From: a virus
Length of the DNA stretch: 64,000 nt
Direction: 5' to 3' (one strand)
IMG/VR virus record: IMGVR_UViG_3300044782_000021
Coordinates: 1 to 64,000 of that record
Part shown: one piece after another, positions 5,812 to 49,370 of the stretch
Layout: every line of letters begins with the position of its first letter
How positions within the stretch are numbered: the stretch's first letter is position 1
Notes under the pieces: generated by a model
The model's input: only the letters and a program-made list of their open reading frames with translations
Told to the model about the DNA's origin: nothing
The model's database searches: none
Made by a program: the position numbers and the translations under genes

Positions 5812-5883
5812 TCCCCCGTAGCTCAACGGCAGAGCAGCCGACGTACGCGGTCGAGGTCGCGGGTTCAACTCCCGCCGGGGGAC
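5812..5883 (+). tRNA. tRNA, probably Arg (ACG), with irregular anticodon arm
   Basis: Acceptor TCCCCCG/CGGGGGA 7 bp; T8 A9; D arm GCTC-AACGGCA-GAGC; T arm GCGGG-TTCAACT-CCCGC. The anticodon stem is only 4 bp (CGAC/GTCG) and shifted by 1-2 nt. Loop is GTACGCG (U33 then ACG, pyrimidine at 37). No encoded CCA. Confidence 0.7.
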
Positions 5884-5931
5884 CTATCATTTCCACCAAC
5901 ACCGCAATCACAACAACCCCCGGGGTCCCCC

Positions 5932-33124: not shown

Positions 33125-35116
33125 GTGACAATGGTTTCGCAAAGCACCCCCGGGCAACTCGCCAAGATCATCAAGGGCGGCCTGCCGGACCTCGTCATGT
33201 CCCGAAGCGCCGACGAGCGATCCATCGACCATATTCAGCGCGGCCTAACACAGCTCAAGAAGCAGCGCGAAGTCTGCGACCGCGCTGACGCGATGTACGA
33301 CGGCGATGTTGGCCTCACGTTCGCCTCTTTCAAGGTGCGCAGACTCCTCGCCAAACAAGGTGGCCTCGAAGAAATAGATGACTTCAATTACGCCCGGATT
33401 CCGGTCGACGTCATCGCCAACCGCCTCCAGATCGCAGCCGTCAAAGTCGCCCCGGCCGAAGAGAACGCCGACGACCAGACGACCAAGGAAAACGCGGCGG
33501 TCACGGCGGCCGAGAAGGCGATAGCCCGCCTCCGCAAGCGCAATGAACTCGACGCCGAAGAGAAGCGGTTGCACACCGACGTCTCCAAGCACGGCGAAGC
33601 GTTCGTCCTTGTCTGGCCCGTCACCGACGACGGCGGCAAAGTCATCGACGTCGATATGCGTGTCAACTCCGCGCACAACGTCGCGATGGTGTACGACGAA
33701 GAGGACTCTCTTCGCCCCGACTTCGTGATCAAATCGTGGACCGTCGATGTCAAGCGGAAGACCGTCGTCCGGGCCAACCTCTACTACTTCGGCGAGAAGG
33801 ATGGCCGCGTCGAGCGGTGGATGACCGAGCCCGGCGGCAACCCGGACGACGAGAAGGCCTGGCTCCGCGTCGCGAAGATCGCCGACGTCAGCGACGTCGA
33901 ATCCGAGGACATGGTCGACGTCGCCGAAGACGAGTTCACCGAGGAGGACGACGACGGTGAATCTCTCCTGGACGTCAACGACATTCCGAATCCGTGGGGC
34001 CAGGTGTGGTTTCACTTCCGCAACGGGCGTCCGTGCGGCCGGCCTGAACACGCGTCGGCGTACGGCCCGCAGACCCTCATTAATAAGTTGATCTATGCGC
34101 ATGCCGGCACGATCGACTACCAGTCGTTTCCGCAGCGGTATTTGCTGCAAGATCCGGCGATCGACGATCCGATGGTCAACTCGGAGGACCCGGACCACCC
34201 GGACGACGAAGAGGACGATCCGGAGACCGAGACCGGCAGCGCCGGACTCAAGGCGGACCCGGCGACCGTCTGGAAGCTTTGGGGCCGGTCGGTGGGCGAG
34301 TTCGCCGCTGCGGACCCGCAGATGTTTCTTGCACCGCTCGACCGCTACATCAAGAGCATGGCGGAGCTGACCGACATCCCTCAGTACGCGTTCAGTAAGG
34401 CGTCCGGCGACCTGCCGTCAGGTTCGGCGGTGCGCCAGTTGAACGGCGCCATGAACGCCAAGGTCAAAGACCGCCAGGACCGGTACGACCCGCAGTGGCA
34501 GGACGGATACGAGAAGGCCCTGACCATGCTCGGCATCTCGGGCGTGACCGTCGATGTCCGGTGGGAGCCGCCGGAGCTGATCAACGACCTTGACGGGTGG
34601 CAGATGCTGAAGGCCAAGCAGGATGCCGGAGTGCCGGGCTCGGTCACCCTGGAGGAGGCCGGCTACGCGCCGGAGCTGGTCGAAGAGTGGGGCCAGGACC
34701 TCGCCAACGCCAGCATCATCCAGCGGGTCGAGATGCTGGAGAAGATCGCGACCGCCGCGCAGGCGCTCGGCGCGGCCGTGGTCACCGGCTCCATTGCGGA
34801 TACGACGAGTCAGGCGCTGTTCGAGCGGCTGCTTCGCCTCACCGTGGAAGGCACCGAGGACATCGAGGACGCGGACAGCGTCGACCCGTTGCCGGTCGCC
34901 GAGTTCCGCGACCCACCCCCGGTCAATCCGGCCATGGCGCAAGCTGAGGCGGCCGGGGCGAATCCGCTCACGCAGGCGCAGATCGAGGCCACCAAGGCGT
35001 CTGCGGAGACCTCGCGGGCGTCGGCGAGGATGCTGAATGCCGGCGGCGGTTCCCCGGCGGACGGGCGGCAGCCGCCGCGCAAGACGGCCGGGCGCCGGCC
35101 GGCTGGGCGGCCGTGA
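33125..35116 (+). CDS. portal protein
   Basis: 663 aa (alternative ATG 33131 with GGAG RBS); position after TerL, size, acidic C-terminal region and SPP1-type portal-like N-terminal pattern. Confidence 0.85.
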   Translation: MTMVSQSTPGQLAKIIKGGLPDLVMSRSADERSIDHIQRGLTQLKKQREVCDRADAMYDGDVGLTFASFKVRRLLAKQGGLEEIDDFNYARIPVDVIANRLQIAAVKVAPAEENADDQTTKENAAVTAAEKAIARLRKRNELDAEEKRLHTDVSKHGEAFVLVWPVTDDGGKVIDVDMRVNSAHNVAMVYDEEDSLRPDFVIKSWTVDVKRKTVVRANLYYFGEKDGRVERWMTEPGGNPDDEKAWLRVAKIADVSDVESEDMVDVAEDEFTEEDDDGESLLDVNDIPNPWGQVWFHFRNGRPCGRPEHASAYGPQTLINKLIYAHAGTIDYQSFPQRYLLQDPAIDDPMVNSEDPDHPDDEEDDPETETGSAGLKADPATVWKLWGRSVGEFAAADPQMFLAPLDRYIKSMAELTDIPQYAFSKASGDLPSGSAVRQLNGAMNAKVKDRQDRYDPQWQDGYEKALTMLGISGVTVDVRWEPPELINDLDGWQMLKAKQDAGVPGSVTLEEAGYAPELVEEWGQDLANASIIQRVEMLEKIATAAQALGAAVVTGSIADTTSQALFERLLRLTVEGTEDIEDADSVDPLPVAEFRDPPPVNPAMAQAEAAGANPLTQAQIEATKASAETSRASARMLNAGGGSPADGRQPPRKTAGRRPAGRP

Positions 35117-36714
35117 TGGCCAGGTCGCGGCGGATCTTCCGGGAGGCTCAGCATCCGCGCGACGACCGGGGGCGCTTCGCACGCAAGGGTGGCGGCAAGT
35201 GGGTGGCCCGCGTTGTCCGGACCGCTGACGCTGGCTTCCTCGACACCGGACAGGCGCGGTCAGGGCTGCGTCAGGGCGGGCCGTCCGGACTGATCAATCT
35301 CGGACAGGTCCGGGAGGAGAACAAGCCGTGGGTGAAGCGTGCCGCCGACCGGATCGGCGAGCAGCGCGGCACCCTGAAGACCGCGCGTGACGTCTCGATG
35401 AGCAAAGATCAAATCCTGGTGGACGGAGTTTGGCGGACCGTCACCATGACCGGCTGGGGTGGCGGCAAGGATAAGCTTGGCTATCGCGATGACGATGACG
35501 TGTCGCGCGAGATCAGACTTGAGGCTGACGAGAAGATCGCCACCCGCCCGACAAAGATCGACTTCAGTGATCCGCTTCGTCCTGGTCAGGCCGCACGGAT
35601 GGCCGCCTGGCGGGCGAATGCCGCCGTACCGCCGCCGTTCCGCATGAGCACGGTCGAACTACCGTCGCCACGCGAGCTACGAGTTGCGGCGCTCGCCGTC
35701 GAGCGCGAGATGGCCGTTGCCACGTTGAAAGCCGCCCAGAGGTTCGCCAAAGCGCGGGCACGCCGCAAGTACCCGAACAGCGAGGGGTATGGCGCGTACA
35801 CCCGAGACTCCTACGTCGAAAACGAGACGCACCGGGAACAATGGGCTGTCAATTCGGTCGACAACCAGTTCCGATACCTCGCCGACAACGACAGCGACAC
35901 AGGAGACTGGAACGTGCGGCCCACCGGCATGGTCGCGGAGCTGATAGCGCCGCTCGATCCCGCGCGCCCCCTCGCGGTGTACGGCGACCTGATGAACATC
36001 GAGGGCGATGACCAGGCCACCTTCCGCCACCTCCGTGACCTTGAGCTGTTGCCCGCCGAGGCGCACGCCATCGTGGCCGCCGGCATGGCCCGGACGCGGG
36101 CCGAGAAAGGCAGTCCGTCCACGGGGGTCTGGCTGGGTTCCCGGTCGATCGCGGAACTGGACCACTCCGACGACCTGGCCAAAGAGCGCCCGCGAGGCTG
36201 GGACGAAGACAAGACGTGGAGCAATGTCGACGGGGTGTATCGGGGCACCACGCAGACGATGATCGCTGGAACCTCCGAAGTGTCCGCGAGCCGGGGCGAG
36301 CATGGTCAAGCAGCGTTGCATGAGTTCGGTCATGCGATCGACGACGAGATCGGTCAACGTCGGGCGTTGGCCGGGAAGCGCGGGGAGAGCGAGTCTCACG
36401 CCGGCCCTGAGTCGTTCTCCCGCGAGTGGGGCGACCTGTGGTCGCGTGTGGTCGCGGCGGCGCCTGATATGAGTCCGTACTTCAAGCAGGGCTTTCCGGC
36501 AGGCCAGCAAGAGTTGTGGGCCGAGGCGTTCGGCGAATGGTCGCGTGCTCGGGCCAGGGCTCGCAAGCGGGGCGAGCACCCTGACCTGATCTCGGTCGTT
36601 GGGCAGAACGCGTTCACACGGGAGTTCCGGATTCCGAAGGAAAACCGGGCACTGGCCATAGAGATGGACACCTATTTTCTTGGTGTCATGGAGCGATTCG
36701 GGGTGAAGCTGTGA
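35113..36714 (+). CDS. putative capsid-cargo protein with lethal-factor-like HExxH zinc metalloprotease domain
   Basis: 533 aa; N-terminal SRRIFREAQHPRDDRGRFARKGG leader; HEFGHAIDD at 36319-36345 and WAEAFGEW ~60 aa downstream mirror the anthrax LF motifs HEFGHAVDD ... EFFAEAF. Confidence 0.7.
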   Translation: MMARSRRIFREAQHPRDDRGRFARKGGGKWVARVVRTADAGFLDTGQARSGLRQGGPSGLINLGQVREENKPWVKRAADRIGEQRGTLKTARDVSMSKDQILVDGVWRTVTMTGWGGGKDKLGYRDDDDVSREIRLEADEKIATRPTKIDFSDPLRPGQAARMAAWRANAAVPPPFRMSTVELPSPRELRVAALAVEREMAVATLKAAQRFAKARARRKYPNSEGYGAYTRDSYVENETHREQWAVNSVDNQFRYLADNDSDTGDWNVRPTGMVAELIAPLDPARPLAVYGDLMNIEGDDQATFRHLRDLELLPAEAHAIVAAGMARTRAEKGSPSTGVWLGSRSIAELDHSDDLAKERPRGWDEDKTWSNVDGVYRGTTQTMIAGTSEVSASRGEHGQAALHEFGHAIDDEIGQRRALAGKRGESESHAGPESFSREWGDLWSRVVAAAPDMSPYFKQGFPAGQQELWAEAFGEWSRARARARKRGEHPDLISVVGQNAFTREFRIPKENRALAIEMDTYFLGVMERFGVKL

Positions 36715-36944
36715 GCGCGGTCGAGCCGTACCGGCGGGGCCGGATCATCGTCGCGCCCAAGCGGGCCGAGAACGACGAGGGCGACGTTGGGGTTGGCTGG
36801 GTTGACCTGAACCCGGGCGATCCGGAGTACGCCGAATGGGACCGGTATCTCAGCGCCTCGCCACCGATCGACGAGGTTCCGCAGGCGTCACCGCGCAGTG
36901 CCAGCCACCGCGCCGGCCGGCGCATTTTCAGGCGGCTGCCGTGA
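36711..36944 (+). CDS. hypothetical small protein ending in ...GRRIFRRLP
   Basis: 77 aa from GTG 36711 (GTGA overlap). Confidence 0.4.
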   Translation: MSAVEPYRRGRIIVAPKRAENDEGDVGVGWVDLNPGDPEYAEWDRYLSASPPIDEVPQASPRSASHRAGRRIFRRLP

Positions 36945-37774
36945 GTCGCGTCTGGGACGAGTCGAAGGTCGACCGGGACAAGTGGGGTCGGTTCGCCGAC
37001 AGCGAGAGCCGCATGGGCGTCGAGACGTGGATGCAGCGCGTCAGCGACGAGATGCGCCGCACCATCGATCGCGAGGACGCCGGCCACCAGGCGGGCCGGT
37101 GGCGCGTCCTGACCCCGGAACAGCAGCGGGTCACCTTGGCAAAGCAGATGTTTGACGGCGCGCTCGACGTGCAGCCTGACTTTGACAAGGCCGAGCTGCG
37201 CCGGCTGTGCCTGGAGGAAGCCGACAATCAGGTGTCGCCCGGTCAGCGCAACGACATCACGCTGACCAATGGCAAGGCCACGATCCGATCCAGCGATCCT
37301 CGGGTCAGGCTCGCCGAGCTGGAGGCGGTCGCCGCGCAGGTCGACGACCTGCACACCCGATTCCCCGCGCAGGGGCGGATGTCGATCGGGGTCTATACCG
37401 ACGATTTTCCGATGAGCCACGAGCACGCCGACGGGCAGACGATCCACGGCGAGGCGTTCATCCAGATCAAAGGCCGGGTCTGGGAGTCGGAGAAGACGGC
37501 TGCGGACGGGTTCATGCCCGCCCAGGACGATCACAGCCGCTGGGAATATGTGCTTGCGCACGAGTGGGGCCACGCGATCGACCACACGAGCCCGATGGAT
37601 CAGCTCATGGCGCAGTTCTCCGAGGGTTCCGTTGGGCTGTCGGCGTACGGGCAGGCGAGCCCGCGTGAGGCGTACGCGGAGGCTTTCGCGGAGTGGTACC
37701 TGACGAAGGGCCACACCACCAACAGCGCGGCGGTCTACTACGCCGAGAAGTTCGATTGGGGTGAGCCCTGGTGA
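36941..37774 (+). CDS. putative capsid-cargo protein with lethal-factor-like HExxH zinc metalloprotease domain
   Basis: 277 aa from GTG 36941 (GTGA overlap) in frame of ORF 36836..37774; N-terminal WDESKVDRDKWGRF leader; HEWGHAIDH 37559-37585 and YAEAFAEWY. Confidence 0.7.
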   Translation: MSRVWDESKVDRDKWGRFADSESRMGVETWMQRVSDEMRRTIDREDAGHQAGRWRVLTPEQQRVTLAKQMFDGALDVQPDFDKAELRRLCLEEADNQVSPGQRNDITLTNGKATIRSSDPRVRLAELEAVAAQVDDLHTRFPAQGRMSIGVYTDDFPMSHEHADGQTIHGEAFIQIKGRVWESEKTAADGFMPAQDDHSRWEYVLAHEWGHAIDHTSPMDQLMAQFSEGSVGLSAYGQASPREAYAEAFAEWYLTKGHTTNSAAVYYAEKFDWGEPW

Positions 37775-37962
37775 GCATCATCATCGCGGAGACGCCGGAC
37801 GGCGCGCGGGAGACCGACATGGTCGACCTGGGCGACGCGGCGCTGTCCGGATTCGTGCGGATGGGCAACGCCGACGCGATCCGGGAGTTCTGGCGGCGCA
37901 AGCTCGCACCACGGCGCCGTGCCAGCCGCCGCATCTTTGACACCTCACGTGACAAGCGGTAG
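37771..37962 (+). CDS. hypothetical small protein ending in ...SRRIFDTSRDKR
   Basis: 63 aa; GTGA overlap; stop inside promoter 37937. Confidence 0.4.
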   Translation: MSIIIAETPDGARETDMVDLGDAALSGFVRMGNADAIREFWRRKLAPRRRASRRIFDTSRDKR

Positions 37963-37965
37963 CGT
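37937..37965 (+). promoter_or_regulatory. sigma-A-type promoter, conserved family, leaderless configuration, inside the structural module
   Basis: -35 TTGACA 37937-37942; spacer CCTCACGTGACAAGCGG; -10 TAGCGT 37960-37965; ATG 37973 is 8 nt downstream. Confidence 0.6.
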
Positions 37966-37972
37966 GGTGACC

Positions 37973-38428
37973 ATGACCTCACGCCGTGCCCGCGTCGCCG
38001 TCCGTCCGCCCTGCGCACCCACCGGCCTACCGGCGCCCGCGCCGAGCACCGACGCCGGCCGGTGCGCGTGCGGTGACCTCCTGCGCCACAAGCCCAATGG
38101 GGCCGGAGAATGGACGACCGTCTCCGTGGTCACTGGACTGGCACATGTCGATCAGGCGCCGCAGGCCCTGCGCGACGATCCCGCGAAATGGTGGGCCGAC
38201 CTCGCCGAGCATGACATCCGGTCGTATTCCGTCCTGAAAGCGGCTGTCGACCTCGGGTACTGGTCGTGGTATCACATCCATCGCACGGAGGCCGGTACCG
38301 CGCCGGCTCACACCGGTACGACGCCGTTCTGCTGCGGCTCGCCGATGTGGGCCGCACCGGACGGCTGGGTGTGCCGGGTCGCCGGCTACACCACGATCCG
38401 GCGACCGTACGCGGAGGTAGGCGCATGA
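37973..38428 (+). CDS. hypothetical Cys-containing protein (leaderless)
   Basis: 151 aa from ATG 37973 in frame of ORF 37919..38428. Confidence 0.55.
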   Translation: MTSRRARVAVRPPCAPTGLPAPAPSTDAGRCACGDLLRHKPNGAGEWTTVSVVTGLAHVDQAPQALRDDPAKWWADLAEHDIRSYSVLKAAVDLGYWSWYHIHRTEAGTAPAHTGTTPFCCGSPMWAAPDGWVCRVAGYTTIRRPYAEVGA

Positions 38429-39252
38429 GCGGGTTTTGGCACGAAGAGGATCATCACCGGGACGATATGGGCCGGTTCACGGAGTCATCTATGGGGGCGT
38501 GGGCGGCGAAGATCGCTCAGCGGATGGCTGATTTCCGCAACAGCGCCCGCAACGACGCCGAACGGATAGGACTGGCGTTCTACAAGGGATTCCGGCCGCC
38601 AGGGTTTGAGGCTGCCAAGAAGCGGCATAAGGAGCTTGATCAGGCATATGTTGACCGGAAACTAACTGATCAAGAGCTGCTCGAACTGAAGACGCTCGAT
38701 GATGCGTTTGACGAATTGGTCAAGCTCATTGGTCACAAGAACTCTCTTAGGTTCGACGCCTATGGAGAGACCCGACCGCATGACATCGAGCCCGCCGCGT
38801 CCCGAATGGGTTACCGGCGAGTTGGCAACCACCCGGAAGGCGTGGGAGGTCCAGAAGGACCCGACGACAACTACTTAAGTCGTAGCTCCCATCCGCTGGC
38901 CGGCGGCCTGTGGATCGATCCGGACCGGCCGGGCACCCGCCATGCTCCGGCGTATCGCAACGATGCCGGACACATTGTGTCGGACCTTCGGGCGGAACCA
39001 CATCGGACCGCTACGCATAAGCGGAATCGTCAGTCGCGGCGTCGTGAGGACTGGACGCATACCCCCGATGACATGGAGCGGCTGCACGAAAGCGAGGGCG
39101 GCAAGATCGGCTATCGCGAAGAGGTCACTTCGGAGTTTCTCGCCTGGGTGAAACGAGCTAAGGCCCGCACTCGCGCCGAGGCACCGCCGCAAACGTGGAT
39201 CTTGCAGGTCAACGATAGATTCGAGCAACGAAGGGATCGGCGCCGTGGCTAA
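38425..39252 (+). CDS. putative capsid-cargo protein (HRDD..GRF leader)
   Basis: 275 aa from ATG 38425 (ATGA overlap) in frame of ORF 38266..39252; N-terminal FWHEEDHHRDDMGRF. Confidence 0.6.
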   Translation: MSGFWHEEDHHRDDMGRFTESSMGAWAAKIAQRMADFRNSARNDAERIGLAFYKGFRPPGFEAAKKRHKELDQAYVDRKLTDQELLELKTLDDAFDELVKLIGHKNSLRFDAYGETRPHDIEPAASRMGYRRVGNHPEGVGGPEGPDDNYLSRSSHPLAGGLWIDPDRPGTRHAPAYRNDAGHIVSDLRAEPHRTATHKRNRQSRRREDWTHTPDDMERLHESEGGKIGYREEVTSEFLAWVKRAKARTRAEAPPQTWILQVNDRFEQRRDRRRG

Positions 39253-42200
39253 GAGGTCGAGGCGGATCTTCCGCGAAAAGGATCACCCGCGCGATGATCG
39301 TGGCCGGTTCGCCGAGAAGGCCGGCGGTCGGTGGCTGGGTCGCGTTGTGCGCCAGCATGAGGCCGGCTTCGGTGACACCAGCGCGGCACAGCCGGGCATG
39401 CGCTCCGGCCGGCTGGGCGGCGGCGTGCTCGACCTGGGCGCGATCAGCCGGGGCAACGCCGGGTTCAACCGGCCGACCGCGCAGCGGCGGGACACGCTGA
39501 GCGCGTCCGGGGTGGCCGGGTTCATGGCGCAGCCGACCAAGAAGGCGCTGACCGTGCCGAAGGTCACGGAGGCGGACATTCGCGAACGCCTCAGGGAGGC
39601 TGAGGACGCTGTAGCCATGCTCGATGGCGACAGCAACACTCGGGTATCTCGCGCCGCGCATGCGGAGCTGATCGAGGCCCGCCAGATGATGAAGGACGCC
39701 GGGTTTGAGCTGGCGCCCGCGCGGCGGCGGTTCGGCCGGGCTATCCCGGAGTCCGAAGCCAAGGCGCCGGAGTCGACCGGCTCGTTCCTGGAGCGGCAGG
39801 CCGCGAAGGTCGCGGCGGCGCGGGCCGCCGGCAAGGCGACCACACCAAAGAAGGCGGTCGCCGAGCGCCAGGGGCCGGACCTGCGCAACCTGATGCGGGA
39901 CAAAGGCATTGATCCGCCGCCGCTCCTGGACGCGAACCAGGAGCTTGACCGGGCCAACAACCGGCTGGCGCGCGGCGACGATCCGAACCTGGTGGCCCGG
40001 AAGCTCCGGGACGCGGCCGACAGCATTGAGCTGCGGGCCGACCAGGAAGGTGGCCCCGACGAAGACAGTGTCGAGCGTAACCAGGCGAAGCAGAGCGCCC
40101 GCTCACTGCGCCGGGCGGCCGGCACGCTTGACGGTGGTGAGGACACGAAGCTACCGGCGTTCATGGAGAAAGCCAACGCCGACATCGCGAAGAAGCTCGG
40201 TCAGACTCAGGTTGACACGTCCCGTGACACGGGGAAGACTGGAGGGGTGACTACCGATGCGGACAAGATGCTTGCCCTCGATCTTGCGGATATGCGCGAA
40301 CAGGCGCCCCACGCTGCCGATCAGCTTGCCAAGGCTCGCGAGGTACTGAAGAGGCAGAAAGCGCGAACCGTGGCGGCGTACGGAGCTGACCGCGACCGGT
40401 GGCCCTCAAACGCGGATCAGTCGATCAGGGTGGAGGAGAAGCGCGTAGCGGATGCCGAAGAGGCGGATCGCAGCGCTCGCGAATACCTCGCCGAACTGGA
40501 GGCTAAGGCCGGTCAGCGCGACAGCGGCGGCACGGTCATTCCCGAGCCAGTCAAGGCGATCCCCTCCACATGGCGGGTCGCACTCTCCAAGATTGACGCG
40601 TCCGAGGTCGGTAAGGGCCGAGGTCTGTCCCCGGGAGAGATCTCCGTACCGGTACGACAGAAGCTCTTCGCCGCCGGCCTCTACGAGGTCCGCAAGGACG
40701 GTACCGGCTACCTCGGACCCCGCGAATACCTGCACCTCACCCCCGCCGGCCACGACGCCCTTAAGGCTGCCGATGGCGAGAAGTACGACCGGCGGCGGGT
40801 CGACGTCGCCGCGAAGACGGAACGGGACGCGGCCAGGAAGGCGGCCGACACCGAGAAGGCCGCCGTCCAGCGGGCCGCCAGCGAGGAGCGTGGCCGGAAG
40901 GTCGAAGCGCAGGCCATCGCCGAGGGTCTTGACCCACTCGCCGCCCGCCTCGGTGGCATCGAGGCCGCCCGCAAGCAGCGTGACGACAAGGCCGCGCAGG
41001 CGGCGGCCGAGCAGGAGATCGTCCTTGGTCGTGGCATTCCCACGTATGTGCCTGGCCAGGGAGCCCGTAACGGCGAGAGCTACGGCGCTGCCCTTCAGCG
41101 AATCATCAAGTTGGGCAAGGAACTTCAGAAGGACGACTTCCCGATCGAGGAGGCCCGACCGGTTGTTTCCGTCCACGCGCGCAAATATGTGGACTCGATG
41201 CAGGCTGTTGACGCCGCGTACAACGACGTTTTCGCGGCTGAGCATCGCCGCGATTACCTGGCCACTATCGCCGGGATTGAGGGCGACTCCGCGTACGGGG
41301 TCAGGGTCAAGGCGGCTGACGACGCCGTTGACGCCGCCCGGGCCACGCTCGGCGAGCGGCTTGATGCCGCCGACGCGGCCCGGGTGGCGTTCGGCGACGC
41401 GGTCATCGGCTTGTACGCCGGCAAGGGCCGGAAGAAGTCGCTCGCCGCTCTTAAACTGCCGATCGTCATCGAGGGCACCAACCACAGGACCAGTCTCGCC
41501 GACCGGATCGCCGGCAAGGTGCCGGCGGACAGCGTCGGCCCTGAGGCGGACGCGGCGCGGCGCGCGGTGCTCGCCCGGCTGCGCGCCGAGGACCAGATCA
41601 AGATCGAGAAGCATGCGGCAGCGTTGCTCCGGGCGAAGGCGTATGGCGTCGAGCGGGACATCCCGCACCTTTCCGGCGACCCGGAGGCCCGCAGTGAGGC
41701 CCGCGCCAAGATGGGTGCACTGAACCGGCAGGGCGGCGAGGCCGAGGGGCGCGCTCGCGACCTGAGCGCCGGCCTGCGCAACATGACGATGACCGAAGAG
41801 AAGGCGCTCGCCGACCTGGCGGCCGTCAAGCCGACGTTCACGCCGCTGCGCGACCCGGACCGCAACAGCAAGGAGGGCCTCGCCCTGTCCCTGCGCTCCG
41901 TGCCGGGCAACAGCCTCGCCGCGACCGCCGCCGACCTGGAGAGCGGCGACATCGGCTACATGCAGGCCGCCGACAAGGTCAGCCAGTTCGGGCGGTCGCT
42001 CGGCGGCCGGACTATGTCCGAGCTGAACCGCACCGCCCTCGCCGAGCTTGAGAGCCGGCTCCGCGCGGCTGGCACCGCCGACCTCGCCCCGAAGGTGCCC
42101 ACGGTGGCTGCCGGGTCCAGCGAGGCCGCCTACGCCGGCATGAAGCGGTCTAGCCTCCTCGCGATCGCCCGGATGAAGGGAATCAACCCACGCGGCAAGG

Positions 42201-44545
42201 ACAACGGCGCCCTTGCGGGGGAGATTGCCGCCCACGACGCGGCACAAGGTGGCGTCAAGGAGGTTCCGGCCGTGGCCCCGGATTCCAAGCGGATCACCCG
42301 CGCGGAGTTCGATGTCCTGCCGGTCGAGCAGCGTGATAGGATCGTCGCCGAGCTACGCAAGATCATCGACACCAACGATCAGGTGTCGAAGACCATCCCG
42401 AGCAACCGCACTAGCATGGGGACCACGATCCGGACTACGGTCTCCGCGCCGTGGGTCGAGCAGGCCAAGGAGAAGCTGCGCGAGCTGACGTACACCGCAC
42501 CGCCGCCGGTCGACTACTCCGTGGGCGGCAAGGCGAGCCGGCTCAGCGCGGCGAGCAACGCCGGAGAGGCCCGGAGCATTCTCAGCGGGTCGACGATGGC
42601 GGATCTTGACGACATCGGTCGGTTGAGCGGGCTCGGGCGGGTGATGACGTCCTGGAAGCGTGACAAGGCCGTTGACTACCTGGTGAACCGGGCGGTCGCC
42701 GGGGACCGGATGCCGACCGACTACTCCACCGACAGCATTGCGGATGCGCTCCGGGGTGCCAGCGCCGAGCAGGCTCTTGCGGTGCTCGACGCGATCGAAA
42801 CTGACCGAGGTATCAGTAAGGCTGAGCTTCAGGCGGTTGCGACGAGCCTCGGTGTCGGAAAGCTGACCGGGGACAAGCGGGCGACGATGCACGCCTTGGC
42901 GGGGAAGGCGGGTGGTGCTGGCCCAAAAGCACCTGAGGCCCGAACCGACACGCCTCGCGACATCGGTGGCATGGTGGAGCTGCTGTCCTTCGGCATAGAC
43001 CGACCAAAGGACGGCTACGACGCGCACGGCGACACGCTCCGGCCTGGCGACATCGCGACTATCGGCTCCGACCGGCACAACCGCACCGACGAACAGGTTG
43101 AGGTGCTCGACGTCGGGATCGGTAAGCAGGGTGGTTCGGCGCTCGCCACAGTGCGATACGCCAACGGCGACCGGGAACAGATCCTCATGGGCAATCTGGT
43201 GCGAACCAAGCCGGTCGGGGTCCGCTACCTGGAGTCGCTCCGCGTCGAGCTTGCCGGCAACGAGCGGGCCGGCATGACGTTGCGTGGAAAGCCCTCCACA
43301 CTCGATGCGCTGCGCGAGGCGACAGGCAAGGGCATGAGCCACTACGCGGCTGCGGTGCTCAGGCGCGAGGCGGGCAGGCACAAGGGTCAGCCGCTCGCCG
43401 ATCGGCTCACGCAGGCGGCGGGCGATATCGAGAAGCTGATCTTCAGTACGAAAGATCCCGAGATCTTGCGGCGCGCGACGGGTGCCGACCCAAAAGCACC
43501 GGTTGACACCACAAGTGACAAGAGCCAGACTGGTGACATGACCCCCGTCGCAAAGACCATCAGTGTTCCTGTCGCGCTTTCCTCTCGTACCCGCAACTAC
43601 AACATTGAGGGACCGAGCAGGGCACAAGCGGTCAAGATGGCTACACTGCGTCAGCGTCACCTGACGGATGCGGAGACCGCTCGTCAGCGAGGTGACGATG
43701 ACGCCGCATTCTCGAAGGATGAGCAGGCGTTTGATCTTGAGACTGATCTGCGTCGGTTTGGGTTCAATGTCGATACGGGTAGGCCGGACCCCAAGGCCGC
43801 GAAGGATCAGCGGGAGAAGGATCGTTCGCGTCGCACGTTCGCGGATAGTCTTCGGGCCGGTGGTGGTGCCGGCCTAAAAGCACCTGAGGCCCGAACCGAC
43901 ACACGTAATCAGGTGGGTGCACGACCTCTCTCCGGCTTGCCTGCCGACCTGAAGGTCATCGGCGTCGGCGGCGTCGCCGAGGACAAGCGGGTCGCTGACA
44001 AGCCGGCACCGCCGACCGCCGAGGAGAAGGCAGCCGCCAAGACCGCCAAGGTTGAGGCTGAGCGTGCCGCCGCCAAGGTCCGCGACGAGGAGTGGACAAA
44101 GCGGCGGGTCGCTGAGATCAAGCGCCGGCTCGACGACGGCCAGACCGAAACCCTCGGCGGCGTCACCGACGCGGGGGTGCTCGCGCTGGCCCGGGAAGTC
44201 GGCGTGCCGATTCCGGCGCGCAAGGCGGACCGGGGCGGCCTGAAGGCGGCCATCATCGACAAGATCCGTAGCGGCGAGTCCGGCGGGCAGGACAGGTCGG
44301 CGGGGTCGGCCCATTGGACCGGCCTCGCCAACAAAGTCATGAACCTCGGCAGCCGCGAAGAAGCCGCAGCCGAGATGCGCGACCTGACCATTCCTGAGCT
44401 GCGCATGCTGGCCAACGCCATGCGTGAGGGCGGCGTCGCCATCGTGGGCGGCACCAGTAAGGCCGCTATCATCCGGGCGCTCGTCGAATACGCGGTTGGC
44501 CGGCGCCTCGATGCCGACGCGATCAGTCGTGTCGGCCTTCGGTAG
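39245..44545 (+). CDS. giant (1766 aa) coiled-coil protein with HPRD..GRF leader and multiple HeH (SAP/Rho-N-like) motifs
   Basis: The N-terminal 60 aa are paralogous to the 35113 gene (SRRIFREKDHPRDDRGRFAEKAGG). Long A/E/K/R-rich regions. HeH-like segments include RSSLLAIARMKGINPRGKDNGALAGEIAAH, GVLALAREVGVPIPARKADRGGLKAAIIDKI and TIPELRMLANAMREGGVAIVGGTSKAAIIRAL. Contains internal KAPEARTDT repeats. Confidence 0.8.
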   Translation: MAKRSRRIFREKDHPRDDRGRFAEKAGGRWLGRVVRQHEAGFGDTSAAQPGMRSGRLGGGVLDLGAISRGNAGFNRPTAQRRDTLSASGVAGFMAQPTKKALTVPKVTEADIRERLREAEDAVAMLDGDSNTRVSRAAHAELIEARQMMKDAGFELAPARRRFGRAIPESEAKAPESTGSFLERQAAKVAAARAAGKATTPKKAVAERQGPDLRNLMRDKGIDPPPLLDANQELDRANNRLARGDDPNLVARKLRDAADSIELRADQEGGPDEDSVERNQAKQSARSLRRAAGTLDGGEDTKLPAFMEKANADIAKKLGQTQVDTSRDTGKTGGVTTDADKMLALDLADMREQAPHAADQLAKAREVLKRQKARTVAAYGADRDRWPSNADQSIRVEEKRVADAEEADRSAREYLAELEAKAGQRDSGGTVIPEPVKAIPSTWRVALSKIDASEVGKGRGLSPGEISVPVRQKLFAAGLYEVRKDGTGYLGPREYLHLTPAGHDALKAADGEKYDRRRVDVAAKTERDAARKAADTEKAAVQRAASEERGRKVEAQAIAEGLDPLAARLGGIEAARKQRDDKAAQAAAEQEIVLGRGIPTYVPGQGARNGESYGAALQRIIKLGKELQKDDFPIEEARPVVSVHARKYVDSMQAVDAAYNDVFAAEHRRDYLATIAGIEGDSAYGVRVKAADDAVDAARATLGERLDAADAARVAFGDAVIGLYAGKGRKKSLAALKLPIVIEGTNHRTSLADRIAGKVPADSVGPEADAARRAVLARLRAEDQIKIEKHAAALLRAKAYGVERDIPHLSGDPEARSEARAKMGALNRQGGEAEGRARDLSAGLRNMTMTEEKALADLAAVKPTFTPLRDPDRNSKEGLALSLRSVPGNSLAATAADLESGDIGYMQAADKVSQFGRSLGGRTMSELNRTALAELESRLRAAGTADLAPKVPTVAAGSSEAAYAGMKRSSLLAIARMKGINPRGKDNGALAGEIAAHDAAQGGVKEVPAVAPDSKRITRAEFDVLPVEQRDRIVAELRKIIDTNDQVSKTIPSNRTSMGTTIRTTVSAPWVEQAKEKLRELTYTAPPPVDYSVGGKASRLSAASNAGEARSILSGSTMADLDDIGRLSGLGRVMTSWKRDKAVDYLVNRAVAGDRMPTDYSTDSIADALRGASAEQALAVLDAIETDRGISKAELQAVATSLGVGKLTGDKRATMHALAGKAGGAGPKAPEARTDTPRDIGGMVELLSFGIDRPKDGYDAHGDTLRPGDIATIGSDRHNRTDEQVEVLDVGIGKQGGSALATVRYANGDREQILMGNLVRTKPVGVRYLESLRVELAGNERAGMTLRGKPSTLDALREATGKGMSHYAAAVLRREAGRHKGQPLADRLTQAAGDIEKLIFSTKDPEILRRATGADPKAPVDTTSDKSQTGDMTPVAKTISVPVALSSRTRNYNIEGPSRAQAVKMATLRQRHLTDAETARQRGDDDAAFSKDEQAFDLETDLRRFGFNVDTGRPDPKAAKDQREKDRSRRTFADSLRAGGGAGLKAPEARTDTRNQVGARPLSGLPADLKVIGVGGVAEDKRVADKPAPPTAEEKAAAKTAKVEAERAAAKVRDEEWTKRRVAEIKRRLDDGQTETLGGVTDAGVLALAREVGVPIPARKADRGGLKAAIIDKIRSGESGGQDRSAGSAHWTGLANKVMNLGSREEAAAEMRDLTIPELRMLANAMREGGVAIVGGTSKAAIIRALVEYAVGRRLDADAISRVGLR
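40212..40240 (+). promoter_or_regulatory. promoter-family motif inside the giant gene (weak -10)
   Basis: TTGACA 40212-17; spacer CGTCCCGTGACACGGGG; AAGACT 40235-40; in-frame GTG 40247 is 7 nt downstream. Confidence 0.3.
42911..42951 (+). repeat. 41-bp direct repeat, copy 1 (pairs with 43862-43902)
   Basis: GGTGGTGCTGGCCCAAAAGCACCTGAGGCCCGAACCGACAC; 27-bp core identical, 2 mismatches overall; copies 951 bp apart (in frame); encodes GGAG.KAPEARTDT. Confidence 0.85.
43503..43531 (+). promoter_or_regulatory. full promoter-family motif inside the giant gene, leaderless configuration on an in-frame ATG
   Basis: TTGACA 43503-08; spacer CCACAAGTGACAAGAGC; CAGACT 43526-31; in-frame ATG 43538 is 7 nt downstream. 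Confidence 0.45.
43862..43902 (+). repeat. 41-bp direct repeat, copy 2
   Basis: GGTGGTGCCGGCCTAAAAGCACCTGAGGCCCGAACCGACAC. Confidence 0.85.
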
Positions 44546-44550
44546 TCACG

Positions 44551-45504
44551 GTGGATGAAGACGAGCTTGTCGACTATGAGCAGCAGGTTCGCCGCAGCGT
44601 CGCGGCGGACCTGCGCACCATCCTCGACCAGCTCCACGCCACCCTGACCGCCGTCTACGTCGTCACCGCCGGGTCGACCAGACACAAGCTCCCCCCGCAT
44701 GCTCAAGAGACCATCCGCCGGCACCTTCTTGACGCCCTCGACCGCATCCAGGCGGGTACCAGCTACGCGCGCACCCGCGCTACCCTGCGTGGTGCGGCCC
44801 GATCGGCGATCGCTGCCGGTGGCGAGGGTACCGGCCTCGGCGTGCCGATCGGGCCGACCACACCTCTCGACATCCGGGCCGCGCTGACCGCGCTCACCGC
44901 CGGCATGCGCGGCGACCTGCTCACCGCCGGCCGGCTGGCCCGCCATGGGCGCCTGGAGCGCTACGGGGACGTGGTCGGCGTCATCATGGCCGCCAGGAAG
45001 GCGCTCAACCGTGCCGAGCGGACAGCCGCGTGGACGGTGCACCGGGCGCACAACGAAGGGGTGCGCCGCGCCGTCGACAAAGCCTGGTCGCAGGGTGTCG
45101 ACGTGTCGCGGATGTGGCGGTCCGAAAGGTCGGCTTGCGTGCGCTGTGCCGGGTTCAATGGGGCGCTCGCGGCCGTTGGGGACGACTTCCTTCCGGTGGT
45201 CGATGTGGCCGACTTTTCCGGCGGGCACGGGCCGGCGGCCGGGCCGCCGCTGCATCCATGGTGCAAATGCTCCGAAGAGCCTTGGTTTGGGCCAGTTTCG
45301 GATGAAGAGCTGACGCCGCTCGACCTGCCGTACGCGCTGCGACGCGAGGCGCAGCGGGCGATCGCGACCGGGCAGGCGCAGGGCAGTGAGCCGGCGCGGC
45401 TGCGCGCGGCGGGGCGCCTGGTCGGCCTCGATGATCTGCTGATCCCGAAGACGGTGCGCAAGCGCGCGGCCGGCGCGGTCGCGGCGGGAACGTTCGATCG
45501 GTAA
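44551..45504 (+). CDS. MuF-like minor capsid / head morphogenesis protein
   Basis: 317 aa from GTG 44551; RTAAWTVHRAHNEGVRRA ... SACVRCAGFNG ... PPLHPWCKCS matches the Phage_Mu_F pattern (N.G ... C..C ... PP.HPNCRC). Confidence 0.75.
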   Translation: MDEDELVDYEQQVRRSVAADLRTILDQLHATLTAVYVVTAGSTRHKLPPHAQETIRRHLLDALDRIQAGTSYARTRATLRGAARSAIAAGGEGTGLGVPIGPTTPLDIRAALTALTAGMRGDLLTAGRLARHGRLERYGDVVGVIMAARKALNRAERTAAWTVHRAHNEGVRRAVDKAWSQGVDVSRMWRSERSACVRCAGFNGALAAVGDDFLPVVDVADFSGGHGPAAGPPLHPWCKCSEEPWFGPVSDEELTPLDLPYALRREAQRAIATGQAQGSEPARLRAAGRLVGLDDLLIPKTVRKRAAGAVAAGTFDR

Positions 45505-45575: not shown

Positions 45576-46115
45576 ATGACCACCACCGTCGAAGCGCCGG
45601 TCACCACCGTCGAGCCGAAGACCTGGACGATCGCCTACCGCAGGCGCACCGCCAACCGCTTTCAGCGGGTCACCAACTGGTCCGGCACCTGGGCTGAGGC
45701 GCGGGAGATGGCTGGTGCGTTCGGCGAGCTGTACCCCGATCTTCAGGTGTGGTACACCATGACCGCCGCTCATGAGCAGGCCGAGACCATCCGCCTCGCC
45801 GCCAAGGTCGCCAGCGGTGAATATGATCAGGAATTCGCTGACCGCTACCTCGAAGACCACCGGAACATCATGGTCGACTCCGGCAAGCGCATCGCCATCC
45901 GCGAGACCGGCAACCTTCCCGCCGAACTGCTCGACGCCGACGCCATGAAGGTCGCGGGCGAGATGCTCACCCCCACCGTGCCCGCGTTTTCGACCTGGAT
46001 CGCCTGTCTTGACTGGGCGGGCGACGTGCGCACCAATCACCCGGCCATCTTCGCCGACATGGTCCGGGACTCCCGCACCGCCGACGAGCGCTACTCCGCG
46101 AGCTGTACCCGATGA
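45576..46115 (+). CDS. hypothetical protein
   Basis: 179 aa; GGGGAG RBS; first gene after promoter 45508. Confidence 0.65.
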   Translation: MTTTVEAPVTTVEPKTWTIAYRRRTANRFQRVTNWSGTWAEAREMAGAFGELYPDLQVWYTMTAAHEQAETIRLAAKVASGEYDQEFADRYLEDHRNIMVDSGKRIAIRETGNLPAELLDADAMKVAGEMLTPTVPAFSTWIACLDWAGDVRTNHPAIFADMVRDSRTADERYSASCTR

Positions 46116-46255
46116 ACATCTACGACATGATCCGGGCGATGCCCGCCCGGATCATCGACTTCTCGACCACTCACCCGGCCGTGCTGGTTTTCGTCGCCGC
46201 CGGGCTCGTGTTCGCCGCCGCTGCCGCCCTGGTCCACCACCACGGAAGGAAATGA
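46112..46255 (+). CDS. small single-TM membrane protein
   Basis: 47 aa; ATGA overlap; PAVLVFVAAGLVFAAAAALV. Confidence 0.45.
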   Translation: MNIYDMIRAMPARIIDFSTTHPAVLVFVAAGLVFAAAAALVHHHGRK

Positions 46256-46257
46256 TC

Positions 46258-46596
46258 ATGTTCCCCTCTGCCGGTTCCATCATCTACCGCAACGAGGCGG
46301 GCGAACCCATCGGCTGGGACGCGCCCGGCGACCCGCACAACGACCCGCACAACGACCCGTATGACCCTGACGACTACCTGGCTCAGGACGACGAGGGAGA
46401 CGAGGAAGATGACGAGGACGGCACTGCCGCCGCCGTTGACGCTGGTCACACCGGACATCCGCCGACCTGGCCCAACTACATCGACAACCGCGAATGCTGG
46501 TACGTGCTGACCAGCCGGACCGAAACCCCGAACTGGCGCGACCGGCTGAGTTGCGGCAACCCGTTGCCGTGCTCGGACCACCCGGAAGTGAGGTAG
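46258..46596 (+). CDS. hypothetical acidic protein
   Basis: 112 aa from ATG 46258 (GGAAGGA RBS; alternative 46252) in frame of ORF 46009..46596. Confidence 0.55.
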   Translation: MFPSAGSIIYRNEAGEPIGWDAPGDPHNDPHNDPYDPDDYLAQDDEGDEEDDEDGTAAAVDAGHTGHPPTWPNYIDNRECWYVLTSRTETPNWRDRLSCGNPLPCSDHPEVR

Positions 46597-47007: not shown

Positions 47008-48054
47008 GTGACGACCACACTAGTCAAGCCTGGGCGTATCGCCCTGTTCAGTGCATACACCCCCATTGGTTATACCTCGCACGGTCCGGTCTACCCGGTC
47101 GGCGGCGGCCGGTCCGGCGGCGGATTCGAGTTCATCGTCGGCGACGATGGCGGCGACGACCCCGAGTTCGACGACGAAGACCACGACGACGACGATGACG
47201 ACGATGACAATGACGCCGAGCTGCCCGCGTCGATGCGCGCCCGTAAGCCGGCGCCGCCCAAGAAGCGGACCCGCAGCGGACCCGCCGATCAGGACGACGA
47301 CAGTCAGGGCGATGCGGCCGAGGGGGACGACGGTTGGGCGCCACCCACGCAAGAGGCGTGGGAGAACATGGAAGCCGCGCTCGGAAAGGCCAACCGGGAA
47401 GCCGCCCGCCGCCGCCGCGTCGGAAAGGTGCTGGACCAGCTTCAGATTCCGCCCGGTCAGGAGATGGAATGGTTCCGTGAGCGCGGAATCGACCCGGACA
47501 CCGGCCGTCGCGTCCTGGCCGACGGCAACGACGATGACCTCCTCGCGGATGGACCTGACGAGGGTGAGCCCGACCAGGACGATGACGCGCAGGGCGACAA
47601 GCCCGGCGACAAGCAGAGCCGCTATACCAAAGCCGACGTCGAGCGCGCCGCGATCCGCGCCGAGAACCGTGCCACGCAGCGGTACGAGGGCCTGGCGATG
47701 GAGCTGGCCGCCGAGAATGCCATCCGGGCCGCCGGCTGGAACGGCACCAAGATTGAAACCGCGTTGAGGTTTGTCGATGCCCGTGAAATTGAGGTGACCT
47801 TCGATGACGAGGGCCGCGCCGTATTCCTCGGGCTTGACGAGCAGGTCGACGACATGAAAGCCGAGTTCCCCGACTGGTTCCGGGTCAAGAAGACCGCCGC
47901 CACGTCCGGTGGCCAGTCGGCCGTCCGGCGCCGCACCGGCAGCAACGGCGCCTCCGCCGTGGACGGCGGGGACCGTGGTCGCAGCACGCCGGCACCGGTC
48001 GGCTGGCTACAGCAGGCGAGTCAGCAGATTGACGGGCGCACCCGGCGCCGTTGA
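47008..48054 (+). CDS. capsid scaffolding protein (putative)
   Basis: 348 aa from GTG 47008 (AAAGGGGAGGAAA RBS); extremely acidic poly-D/E tracts plus helical region; immediately upstream of the major capsid gene. Confidence 0.65.
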   Translation: MTTTLVKPGRIALFSAYTPIGYTSHGPVYPVGGGRSGGGFEFIVGDDGGDDPEFDDEDHDDDDDDDDNDAELPASMRARKPAPPKKRTRSGPADQDDDSQGDAAEGDDGWAPPTQEAWENMEAALGKANREAARRRRVGKVLDQLQIPPGQEMEWFRERGIDPDTGRRVLADGNDDDLLADGPDEGEPDQDDDAQGDKPGDKQSRYTKADVERAAIRAENRATQRYEGLAMELAAENAIRAAGWNGTKIETALRFVDAREIEVTFDDEGRAVFLGLDEQVDDMKAEFPDWFRVKKTAATSGGQSAVRRRTGSNGASAVDGGDRGRSTPAPVGWLQQASQQIDGRTRRR

Positions 48055-48197: not shown

Positions 48198-48290
48198 CTC
48201 CATCCCGCGACGGGCAATAGTCGGCTTCCCATTACCTCGCTCGTGACGAGCAATCGAATTCCCCGATTGTGTGCGAGCGAAAGGAAGCCA

Positions 48291-49370
48291 ATGACGCACA
48301 CCAACGCCGCACTTCTTTGGGATGTGCAGCCCGACCGCGATACCGATCCCCTCGCCCTTCCCCGCCTGCTCGGCACCACGCGCAGCGGTCGCCCCGTCTG
48401 GTCCGTCGCCGGTGGCGCGATCATCAACGTGGACGAGTGGATTCCGATCGAGTACTCCTCGGAAGTCGTTCAGCGCGTCCTAACGGAGTCGGTGATCGAA
48501 TCCAGCGCTAAGCGCGTGATCATGAACTCCAAAACGAAGTCGATCCCGCGCTCGGCCGGCATCACCGTCTCGGCCGGTACCACGTACGTCGATGACGCGT
48601 CGACCAACGACGAGATCACCCTGACGGCGCGGCGCTTCATCGCCCGCCTCAAGATCGATGAGGATGACCTGGCCGACGCCAACACCCGTCTCGACGTGCT
48701 CGGGACCAAGGCGCTCGACTGGGCGATCTCCTATGCCGACGTGTTCGACAACGCGTGCTTGGGCGTCACCGCGACCGAAACCGGCACCTCCGTGGCGCCG
48801 TTCACCTCCGCGTACAAGCGGATGCGGACCACGAACGCCGACACCAGCTACACCGCCGACGCCAACTATCTGACGTGGGACGACGACAACCCGGCGATCT
48901 CTACCACGCCAGACGGCACGTCGCTGTACGAGAAGCTATCGGCCACCTTCAAGAAGGTGGAAACCGGCAAGTACTGGTCCCAGTCCGACGCGCTGGTTAT
49001 CGCGCACCCGGGCTGGCGCGACGCGCTCCGGCTGTGCATGGACGCCCAGGGCCGACCCATCTTCCAGCCGGGTACCGGCAACCGGCTGCCGGGCAACGGC
49101 ACCCCGGACCAGCTCTTCAACACCGACATCCGTTGGTCGCGTGGCTGCCGGACCAGCCCAACCAACACCGGCAGTCCGACCGGCAACGACCTGCTCTACT
49201 ACCTGAACCGTCGGTACCTCGCCCGAGGCGACCGGTCCGGGCCGGAGACGCTGACCGACGACGCGCGGGCGCAGGACGACACGGACGACTACGCGATGAA
49301 GTTCAGGACGCGTCGCGCGTTCCAGCTTACGCACGAGGCCGCGTGTGCCGTACTGGAGCGGGTCGACTAA
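48291..49370 (+). CDS. major capsid protein (HK97 fold)
   Basis: 359 aa from ATG 48291 (AAAGGAAG RBS) in frame of ORF 48243..49370; position, size and Phage_capsid-like sequence pattern. Confidence 0.85.
   Translation: MTHTNAALLWDVQPDRDTDPLALPRLLGTTRSGRPVWSVAGGAIINVDEWIPIEYSSEVVQRVLTESVIESSAKRVIMNSKTKSIPRSAGITVSAGTTYVDDASTNDEITLTARRFIARLKIDEDDLADANTRLDVLGTKALDWAISYADVFDNACLGVTATETGTSVAPFTSAYKRMRTTNADTSYTADANYLTWDDDNPAISTTPDGTSLYEKLSATFKKVETGKYWSQSDALVIAHPGWRDALRLCMDAQGRPIFQPGTGNRLPGNGTPDQLFNTDIRWSRGCRTSPTNTGSPTGNDLLYYLNRRYLARGDRSGPETLTDDARAQDDTDDYAMKFRTRRAFQLTHEAACAVLERVD

Follow-up and report, generated by a model that had tools for sequence, protein, structure and literature searches.

A viral genome fragment of 64,000 nucleotides (nt) (IMG/VR record IMGVR_UViG_3300044782_000021, positions 1 to 64,000; hereafter the window) encodes four proteins, between its portal gene and a MuF-like minor head protein gene, that open with the same short motif. 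As aligned here, the extended consensus of this core motif is [WF]-x-E-x-x-H-P-R-D-x-x-G-R-F. Judged by the proteins that carry it, it is the punctuation motif of phage polyvalent proteins, in which it heads or separates effector domains. The motif probably marks proteins that travel inside the phage head and are injected together with its DNA. The block from 35116 to 44545 may well be a head-module cargo cassette, the unfused equivalent of a phage polyvalent protein, in which the tag docks cargo at the portal/MuF vertex or at the scaffold. As predicted from the translations, the cassette comprises an M34 zincin, a small zincin-like protein, a 275-residue protein and a 1766-residue giant, each with a leader of about 35 residues:

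35116-36714, plus strand: gene 1, 532 residues, leader-tagged M34/ATLF-like zincin metallopeptidase with HEFGH (PF07737, E = 1e-6)
36941-37774, plus strand: gene 2, 277 residues, leader-tagged, with a HEWGH...E zincin signature (15 homologues)
38425-39252, plus strand: gene 3, 275 residues, leader-tagged, function unassigned by profile
39245-44545, plus strand: gene 4, leader-tagged giant of 1766 residues, largely helical and of low complexity

Translated in six frames, the window contains exactly four copies of the pattern RD..GRF, all on the plus strand (35158, 36974, 38458 and 39290). Chance models predict far fewer copies, with a mean of 0.165 in first-order Markov simulations and of 0.13 after triplet shuffling, and at most two in any of the 200 runs of each model. 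The longer pattern [WF]-x-E-x-x-x-x-R-D-x-x-G-R-F also fits all four copies. The aromatic residue of the motif is residue 8, 5, 5 and 9 of genes 1 to 4, respectively, counted from starts that were read from the gene junctions (ATG 35116, GTG 36941, ATG 38425 and GTG 39245). Each of these starts overlaps the preceding stop, as TGATG, GTGA, ATGA or an 8-nt overlap. The original prediction had pointed out a common motif at the starts of four consecutive genes. The motif holds up, with four copies against about 0.15 expected. The genes lie in one block but are not strictly consecutive, since three small untagged, presumably accessory genes are interleaved among them, two of them apparently translationally coupled to the zincins. 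The four copies are as follows, that of gene 2 being the most degenerate:

35137-35178, plus strand: core motif of gene 1, FREAQHPRDDRGRF; the motif hidden Markov model (HMM) scores 26.1 bits, against a maximum of 1.4 in 20 shuffled windows
36953-36994, plus strand: core motif of gene 2, WDESKVDRDKWGRF, degenerate, with HP replaced by VD
38437-38478, plus strand: core motif of gene 3, WHEEDHHRDDMGRF; motif HMM 3.0 bits, exceeding all shuffles
39269-39310, plus strand: core motif of gene 4, FREKDHPRDDRGRF; motif HMM 21.6 bits

The similarity does not stop at the core. In each of the four proteins, an amphipathic helix starts with a Trp located 10-14 residues past GRF. A Gly/Ser spacer and this Trp-led helix (WVARVVRTAD, WMQRVSDEMRR, WAAKIAQRMADF and WLGRVVRQHE) occupy 35179-35230, 36995-37050, 38479-38520 and 39311-39350, and GG..W..ARVVR is also present in gp48 of Streptomyces phage Gilgamesh. 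Because spacer and helix recur beyond the core, in Gilgamesh gp48 as well, the functional leader may comprise about 35 residues rather than 14. In an AlphaFold2 (AF2) model of gene 1, residues 10-38 form a small hairpin and a helix at a predicted local distance difference test (pLDDT) score of about 72, followed by a disordered linker. The leaders of genes 1 and 4 are 53% identical at the protein level across the first 78 residues (E = 5e-19), with no similarity beyond in a BLAST-type comparison, in agreement with the N-terminal paralogy proposed for this pair. The DNA of the two leaders is about 63% identical, with many synonymous differences; together with the protein identity, this indicates that the leader is old and selected rather than recently copied.

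Homologues bear out the selection on the leader. Across 17 homologues of gene 1 (31-46% identity), E10, H13, P14, R15, D16, G19, R20, F21, G25, G26, W29 and R32 are invariant. The gene 4 family has at least 46 representatives, all with the N-terminal leader, and in a 16-member alignment the leader residues and one proline are the only invariant columns. Distant gene 2 homologues carry a canonical W-x-E-x-D-HPRD-xx-GRF at the N-terminus. The change from HPRD to V[DNHTK]RD in gene 2 is common to the window copy and its closest relatives, whereas distant relatives retain HPRD. The gene 3 homologue in the related contig L003 (220 residues) begins MTARWNPKRHPRDGENGRF. In each of these family alignments, conservation is highest in the motif. 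The bodies are BLAST-unrelated to one another, and the proposed shared tag on them is a real, selected and transferable N-terminal module.

A trivial cause of the resemblance, be it chance, an enzyme domain, a twin-arginine translocation (Tat) signal, a nucleotide element at gene starts or an identity of gene 4 as tape measure protein, is very improbable. The motifs do lie near translation starts, and genes 1 and 4 start S-R-R-I-F, near the Tat consensus S/T-R-R-x-F-L-K. A Tat signal was nevertheless rejected for the window leaders: SRRIF is followed by REAQHPRDDRGRFARKGGGK, which is charged and has no hydrophobic (h-) region, and relatives have KRVF or RPWG instead, so the RR is not conserved. 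Gene 4 was likewise rejected as tape measure protein, as it lies in the head module and a separate tape measure gene is present at 55018-57501. The excess of copies over chance, the unrelated bodies and the presence of the motif deep inside long proteins all argue against a trivial cause. Cellular homologues of the zincin body in Nocardia lack the motif, which is therefore not part of the enzyme; an origin in an enzymatic domain unrelated to packaging had been named at the outset as the finding that would undermine a packaging role.

The motif is widespread among phages. An exact degenerate-codon scan of viral contigs found HPRDxxGRF in at least 120 contigs or loci. Among the loci listed, 106 ORFs (open reading frames) of at least 150 residues carry it, 61 of them within 60 residues of the longest possible start; many of the motif-bearing ORFs are giants of 1000-4228 residues, and the bodies form 47 clusters that are unrelated by BLAST. 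Conservation extends to positions left free by the scan, with W/F at -5 in 65 of 98, E/P at -3 in 79 of 98, and L/K at -1. A profile of the clade leader matched 294 of 1.84 billion cluster representatives at E ≤ 1e-3. Position and copy number were tallied with a relaxed pattern for the best 146 new leader-profile matches. Of these, 67 have at most one copy, which lies at residue 7-33 (mode 12) in 63 of the 65 proteins where it was found. The single-copy matches form 11 body clusters. In the other 79, 2-10 copies are present, spaced by a median of 256 residues. Conservation of the motif extends over phages that differ widely in host and GC content, and the motif and its flanks combine basic and aromatic residues with Gly-rich linkers.

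Four multi-copy proteins were mapped by Pfam, and each domain found lies between successive motifs or past the last one. A MuF domain at 938-1059 is followed by a motif at 1075, a Zeta toxin domain (1594-1731) lies between motifs at 1479 and 1820, and an ART-PolyVal domain (249-403) between motifs at 213 and 419. The effector domains that accompany the motif are ART-PolyVal, ADPrib_exo_Tox, Zeta toxin, RelA_SpoT, PBECR1/2, NUDIX, 2H, InPase, LPD3, GNAT, SAM lyase and ATLF. The virion domains Phage_Mu_F, Phage_portal and Peptidase_S78 (prohead protease) occur in the same chains as the motif. No relaxase or ArdC-type conjugation domain is among the top families that accompany it.

This organization resembles that of polyvalent proteins as laid out in passages of Iyer, Burroughs, Anand, de Souza and Aravind (2017, J Bacteriol, PMC5512222). 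Both share a repertoire of zincin metallopeptidase (MPTase)/ATLF, ART-PolyVal, Zeta toxin, RelA/SpoT, PBECR, 2H, InPase, LPD3 and NUDIX domains, a location beside portal, MuF and other head genes, and the prediction that the proteins are enclosed in the head and then injected. The window motif is moreover the inter-domain punctuation of bona fide ART-PolyVal-containing proteins. The block sits among head genes, between the portal gene at 33125 and the MuF-like gene at 44551, in an order that relatives keep, and it encodes zincin-like MPTase hubs, namely the ATLF/M34 domain of gene 1 and HEWGH with E243 in gene 2. In contrast to polyvalent proteins, the modules are separate genes here, each with an N-terminal motif, rather than one multi-domain chain. 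Each window protein has at most one recognisable domain; two or more unrelated domains per chain are seen in other motif carriers.

The MuF polymorphic toxins, as treated in parts of Jamet et al. (2017, BMC Biol, PMC5576092), are similar in that effectors are linked to MuF/gp7 and include Zeta, RelA/SpoT and ART domains. A gene 2 homologue is MuF-fused, and in the fusions mapped (L055, P0033 and P0072) the motif follows MuF by about 10-25 residues. Such toxins combine MuF (PF04233) and a C-terminal toxin in one chain, whereas the MuF-like protein of the window is encoded by a separate untagged gene downstream of the cargo and none of the four tagged proteins has a MuF domain.

With its place at module boundaries, the motif could also be a recombination junction for swapping or fusing effector cassettes, comparable to the VENN or DPxGL boundaries of polymorphic toxins and with little biochemical role. 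The boundaries are matched exactly, the number of tagged genes varies among close relatives (two in L005, three in L003 and four in the window) and the same bodies occur fused and unfused, as with the gene 2-type body that is fused to a MuF domain in P0031. We nonetheless find this reading improbable. The motif is conserved at the protein level with synonymous divergence, and a passive junction would not be under the selection seen in the most conserved part of these families. A use as junction is also compatible with a functional role rather than exclusive of it.

The genes around the motif are head genes. Upstream neighbours of the N-terminal-type ORFs (n = 53) encode DUF6582 in 24 cases, portal families in eight and MuF in seven. 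PHROG assigned 8/8 neighbours examined to portal, portal-MuF or head-maturation-protease proteins, and the two examined downstream to the major capsid protein. A survey of motif N-termini beside portals, which had been suggested as a check, places the single-copy genes directly downstream of portal, MuF or prohead-protease genes. The MuF hallmark expression HPxC[RK]C matched neighbours at 3 of 103 loci and is too strict to inform. In related contigs the order is portal, tagged zincin, small ORF, tagged giant, MuF or another gene, scaffold and capsid. This linkage and the effector repertoire, which is characteristic of injected polyvalent proteins and MuF toxins, support the view that the tagged proteins are head-associated and delivered with the DNA. 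Because the linkage is to head genes and not to tail or early genes, an assembly role for the motif is the simpler reading.

We propose that the leader would serve as a portable handle by which cargo is brought to the assembling procapsid, at its portal vertex or scaffold, with MuF or portal as its likeliest partners. Enclosed in the head in this way, the tagged proteins would be delivered together with the DNA when a cell is infected and would target the host; the zincins would serve as effectors or for processing. A row of such genes could become the portal-motif-effector, MuF-motif-toxin and multi-motif architectures of other phages by gene fusion over the overlapping stop/start junctions. 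What we infer here is that the proteins enter the virion and are ejected, and also their binding partner and host targets. The idea of a packaging tag, as raised by the original prediction, is plausible from sequence.

There are precedents for such tags. A short N-terminal tag, the capsid targeting sequence (CTS), is common to diverse head-enclosed, injected internal proteins of T4 (PMC3012670). The first 30 residues of DarB of phage P1 suffice to load a reporter and darB adjoins the portal gene, although the Dar proteins have no common consensus tag (PMC9024508). The window leaders resemble both in being short N-terminal tags on otherwise diverse cargo, with the motif starting at residue 5-9 in the window and at 7-33 in nearly all single-copy proteins. 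They have no sequence similarity to either. The T4 CTS works via the scaffolding core and is removed by gp21, whereas the window phage shows no prohead protease among the ORFs scanned. A further difference from T4 and P1 is that the window motif is conserved in numerous lineages of unrelated phages and can be present in several internal copies.

More tentatively, [WF]xExxHPRDxxGRF could be a hitherto unrecognised, lineage-spanning address tag of tailed phages that is both necessary and sufficient for loading arbitrary proteins into the procapsid via the portal/MuF vertex for co-injection. If this possibility were true, the injected proteome of thousands of phages would be definable from sequence alone, polyvalent proteins would be explained as fusions of tagged cassettes, and a general handle for loading heterologous cargo into phage heads would be at hand.

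Several points weigh against a role in cargo packaging. Packaging into the virion is deduced from gene context only, and the AF2 confidence of the leader is moderate. The MuF-like gene of the window phage bears no motif, and the motif is lacking in gp6, gp7, gp8 and gp9 of SPP1, the model for portal-MuF assembly. The strict DNA pattern of the viral survey skews its sample toward high-GC phages and perfect motifs. In addition, the motif stays canonical in chains that are fused to portal or MuF (L055, L099, P0033 and P0072). A docking tag should be dispensable in such chains, which suggests an additional or different role.

One such role is that of a proteolytic processing or release site, with the cut made at or near the motif by a protease of the host or of the phage, in the latter case a prohead protease or zincin MPTase. 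Cleavage would free the effector domains of polyvalent proteins; in stand-alone cargo it would remove a short propeptide, much as gp21 of T4 cuts at the CTS. T4-type prohead proteases have x-x-E cleavage motifs, which the aromatic-x-Glu before HPRD loosely recalls. One motif separates successive domains in the four mapped polyvalent proteins, release would help in the portal- or MuF-fused chains where the motif persists, and two of the four tagged window proteins are zincins (gene 2 putatively). MPTase-mediated processing of polyvalent proteins is also predicted in passages of Iyer et al. (2017, PMC5512222). Yet the motif does not co-occur with peptidases: ATLF is found in 1 of 47 viral clusters and 1 of 49 multi-copy proteins, and S78 in few. 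The zincins of genes 1 and 2 are for this reason unlikely to be a dedicated protease of the motif, and we rejected them as such. Among the ORFs scanned, the window phage and its relatives also showed no prohead protease. For a stand-alone protein, cutting 5-12 residues from the N-terminus would serve no evident purpose unless targeting was involved as well, and 14 near-invariant residues across unrelated phages would be unusually long for a protease site. On this evidence a release site seems unlikely.

The motif could instead act during or after ejection, as a short linear ligand of DNA, the tail channel or a conserved host factor that helps each module to leave the capsid or to reach the place where it acts. 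This would agree with its conservation across hosts and GC contents and with its retention in chains that are already fused to virion proteins, and the basic, aromatic and Gly-rich flanks would fit an exposed peptide ligand. However, the motif matches no PDB chain or Pfam family, and its strict linkage to head genes, not tail or early genes, is more simply explained by assembly, and we consider a role during or after ejection, instead of in assembly, quite doubtful.

Gene 1 consists of the leader (residues ~1-38), a disordered linker (40-82), a beta-rich middle domain and a C-terminal zincin domain. A profile of gene 1 matches PPEP-3 and lethal factor in the PDB (E = 7e-7). The AF2 model has a mean pLDDT of 80, and its Foldseek match is PPEP-3 (E = 9e-6). 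HEFGH is invariant and E466/E470 are conserved in homologues, and the PF07737 match is above the cut-off. From profiles and model, the C-terminal domain is predicted to be an M34 zincin of the lethal factor/Pro-Pro endopeptidase kind. It has the HExxH and downstream Glu and the same fold as the M34 zincins anthrax lethal factor and PPEP-1/2/3. Gene 1 differs from these in its phage leader and beta-rich domain, and identity is 12-18% in a comparison that covers the body and not the motif. In 15 homologues of gene 2, H207, E208, W209, G210, H211, D214 and E243 are invariant. PDB matches of gene 2 to PPEPs are marginal (E = 0.2-0.6); together with the HEWGH motif, they suggest that it is a putative second, small zincin-like protein. 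Of the two proteases originally proposed, that of gene 1 is supported by Pfam, PDB profile and Foldseek, and that of gene 2 stays putative.

Three small genes without the motif lie between the tagged genes:

36711-36944, plus strand: small ORF A, 77 residues, motif-free; GTGA overlaps couple gene 1, ORF A and gene 2
37771-37962, plus strand: small ORF B, 63 residues, motif-free, GTGA-coupled to gene 2
37964-38428, plus strand: ORF C, putative gene of about 151-154 residues, Cys-rich (CxC ... CC ... C), motif-free; its stop overlaps the start of gene 3 (ATGA)

Small ORF A is kept directly after the zincin in the relatives L003 and L005, and small ORF B is its weak paralogue (BLASTP E = 0.012). 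From their position, ORFs A and B could encode a candidate cognate inhibitor, immunity protein or chaperone of a packaged protease. Both end ..RRIF.., echoing the RRIF that opens the leaders of genes 1 and 4. ORF C has no NCBIfam or Pfam match.

Gene 3 has no match in Pfam, PHROG, NCBIfam or the PDB. Gene 4 matches nothing in Pfam or the PDB and has no recognisable effector domain. Its C-terminal helix-loop-helix repeats (AF2 pLDDT 64) were considered as HeH/SAP/Rho-N-like DNA-binding units and rejected, with no Pfam match at E ≤ 10 and no Foldseek match.

The block is embedded in a head module followed by tail genes:

31253: TerL, upstream of the portal gene, confirmed by Pfam/PHROG profile
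33125-35116, plus strand: portal protein, SPP1 gp6-like (PF05133, E = 1.4e-12; phrog_104, E = 1.5e-46)
44551-45504, plus strand: MuF-like (SPP1 gp7-like) minor head protein, motif-free (phrog_24918, E = 2.9e-6, weak), with the HPWCKC hallmark
47008-48054, plus strand: scaffolding protein (phrog_194, E = 1e-3, weak)
48243-49370, plus strand: major capsid protein (phrog_10, E = 2e-10)
55018-57501: tape measure protein, a separate gene; 24 PHROG families matched, 18 of them tape measure

Both portal profiles uphold the proposed portal upstream of the block. Zuko and KimJongPhill, Streptomyces phages in which MuF directly follows the portal, have portals with 27-29% identity to that of the window. 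The displacement of MuF by about 9.4 kilobases, also proposed originally, is backed by HPWCKC and by position, and its profile support is weak; the gene is homologous to a 314-residue gene at the same position in L005. After the MuF-like gene come the scaffold, major capsid protein, major tail protein, tape measure and minor tail proteins. Scaffold and capsid genes end the head module, and relatives have a PF06810 scaffold and a PF05065 capsid in identical order. No prohead protease was recognised among the head-module ORFs scanned, as had been noted before, with two ORFs (45576-46115 and 46009-46596) lacking an assigned function. A search for near-identical DNA in GenBank phages gave no match, and isolates are therefore no more than distant relatives of the window phage, an uncultured virus whose fragment derives from a metagenome contig of 82.5 kilobases.

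Polyvalent proteins, MuF-linked effectors and N-terminal capsid-targeting tags are already known. The motif itself, its N-terminal and inter-domain placement, its spread over phage lineages and the split-gene arrangement appear to be new. As a profile on its own, the motif matches no family in Pfam, NCBIfam or the PDB. A word-index homologue search with the motif alignment, a short query, returned 16 candidates, none at E ≤ 10. In tblastn searches against phages, neither gene 1 nor the 39-residue leader nor a viral ART-type giant found a match; a longer 77-residue leader query gave weak, sensible phage matches. Literature searches on the motif string, packaging signals and injected effectors found nothing relevant, an absence that is no proof of novelty. 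The motif is not described in the passages searched of the polyvalent-protein paper (PMC5512222), and the words 'motif', 'linker' and 'cleavage' were not found in the portion of the MuF-toxin text (PMC5576092) that was searched. The only near match in the PDB is chain Af of 9rku, from the baseplate core of phage 7-7-1 (PMC12796354), which has PRDASGRFAYSGGPG at residues 84-98 (E = 0.17). The PRDASGRF of this 'putative tail biosynthetic protein' was rejected as a relative of the motif, being too weak and possibly due to chance.

Head-packaged, co-injected proteins are the first weapons of a phage against host defences and are hard to recognise by sequence. T4 and P1 each have their own tag; a single cross-lineage motif would list candidate injected effectors, including hundreds of unannotated giants. 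It also raises the concrete questions of what HPRDxxGRF binds and whether it is cut. Cultured carriers include Streptomyces phage Gilgamesh, Gordonia phage Geodirt and Pseudomonas phage Orisa03. Gilgamesh (L138, NC_073461, 6920 onwards) encodes gp48, a hypothetical protein of 4624 residues with a canonical motif at residue 37, whose leader aligns with that of gene 4 (E = 3e-6). The gene lies two genes after the portal-MuF fusion gp46, with a small membrane-protein gene in between. Gilgamesh is a tractable cultured system for the tag. In Orisa03 gp4, the motif stands just before an ART domain, and Geodirt gp16, a protease fusion, carries a variant form.

A large family of 1400-2100 residues (L043, L018, L109 and other viral loci) begins WGTREELLHPRDSHGRFRxKWKM. 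It sits between a protease gene (phrog_18402/DUF6582) and a cluster-B-like major capsid gene. That protease gene is similar to the one for a 'capsid maturation protease and MuF-like fusion' in cluster-B mycobacteriophages. In Reprobate, a cultured mycobacteriophage of cluster B, the place of these giants is taken by a gene of only 72 residues.

Other genes of the window and its relatives lie outside the block. The minor-tail region of the window encodes a 1004-residue protein (58506-61520) with a phosphodiesterase-like PHROG match across residues 47-243. A single tRNA-Arg gene (anticodon ACG) is located at 5812-5884, in the non-structural half. The relatives L003/L004 carry a TROVE (Ro60-like) gene upstream of the terminase (751-2466), and L005 carries a Prok-JAB gene (763-1251).

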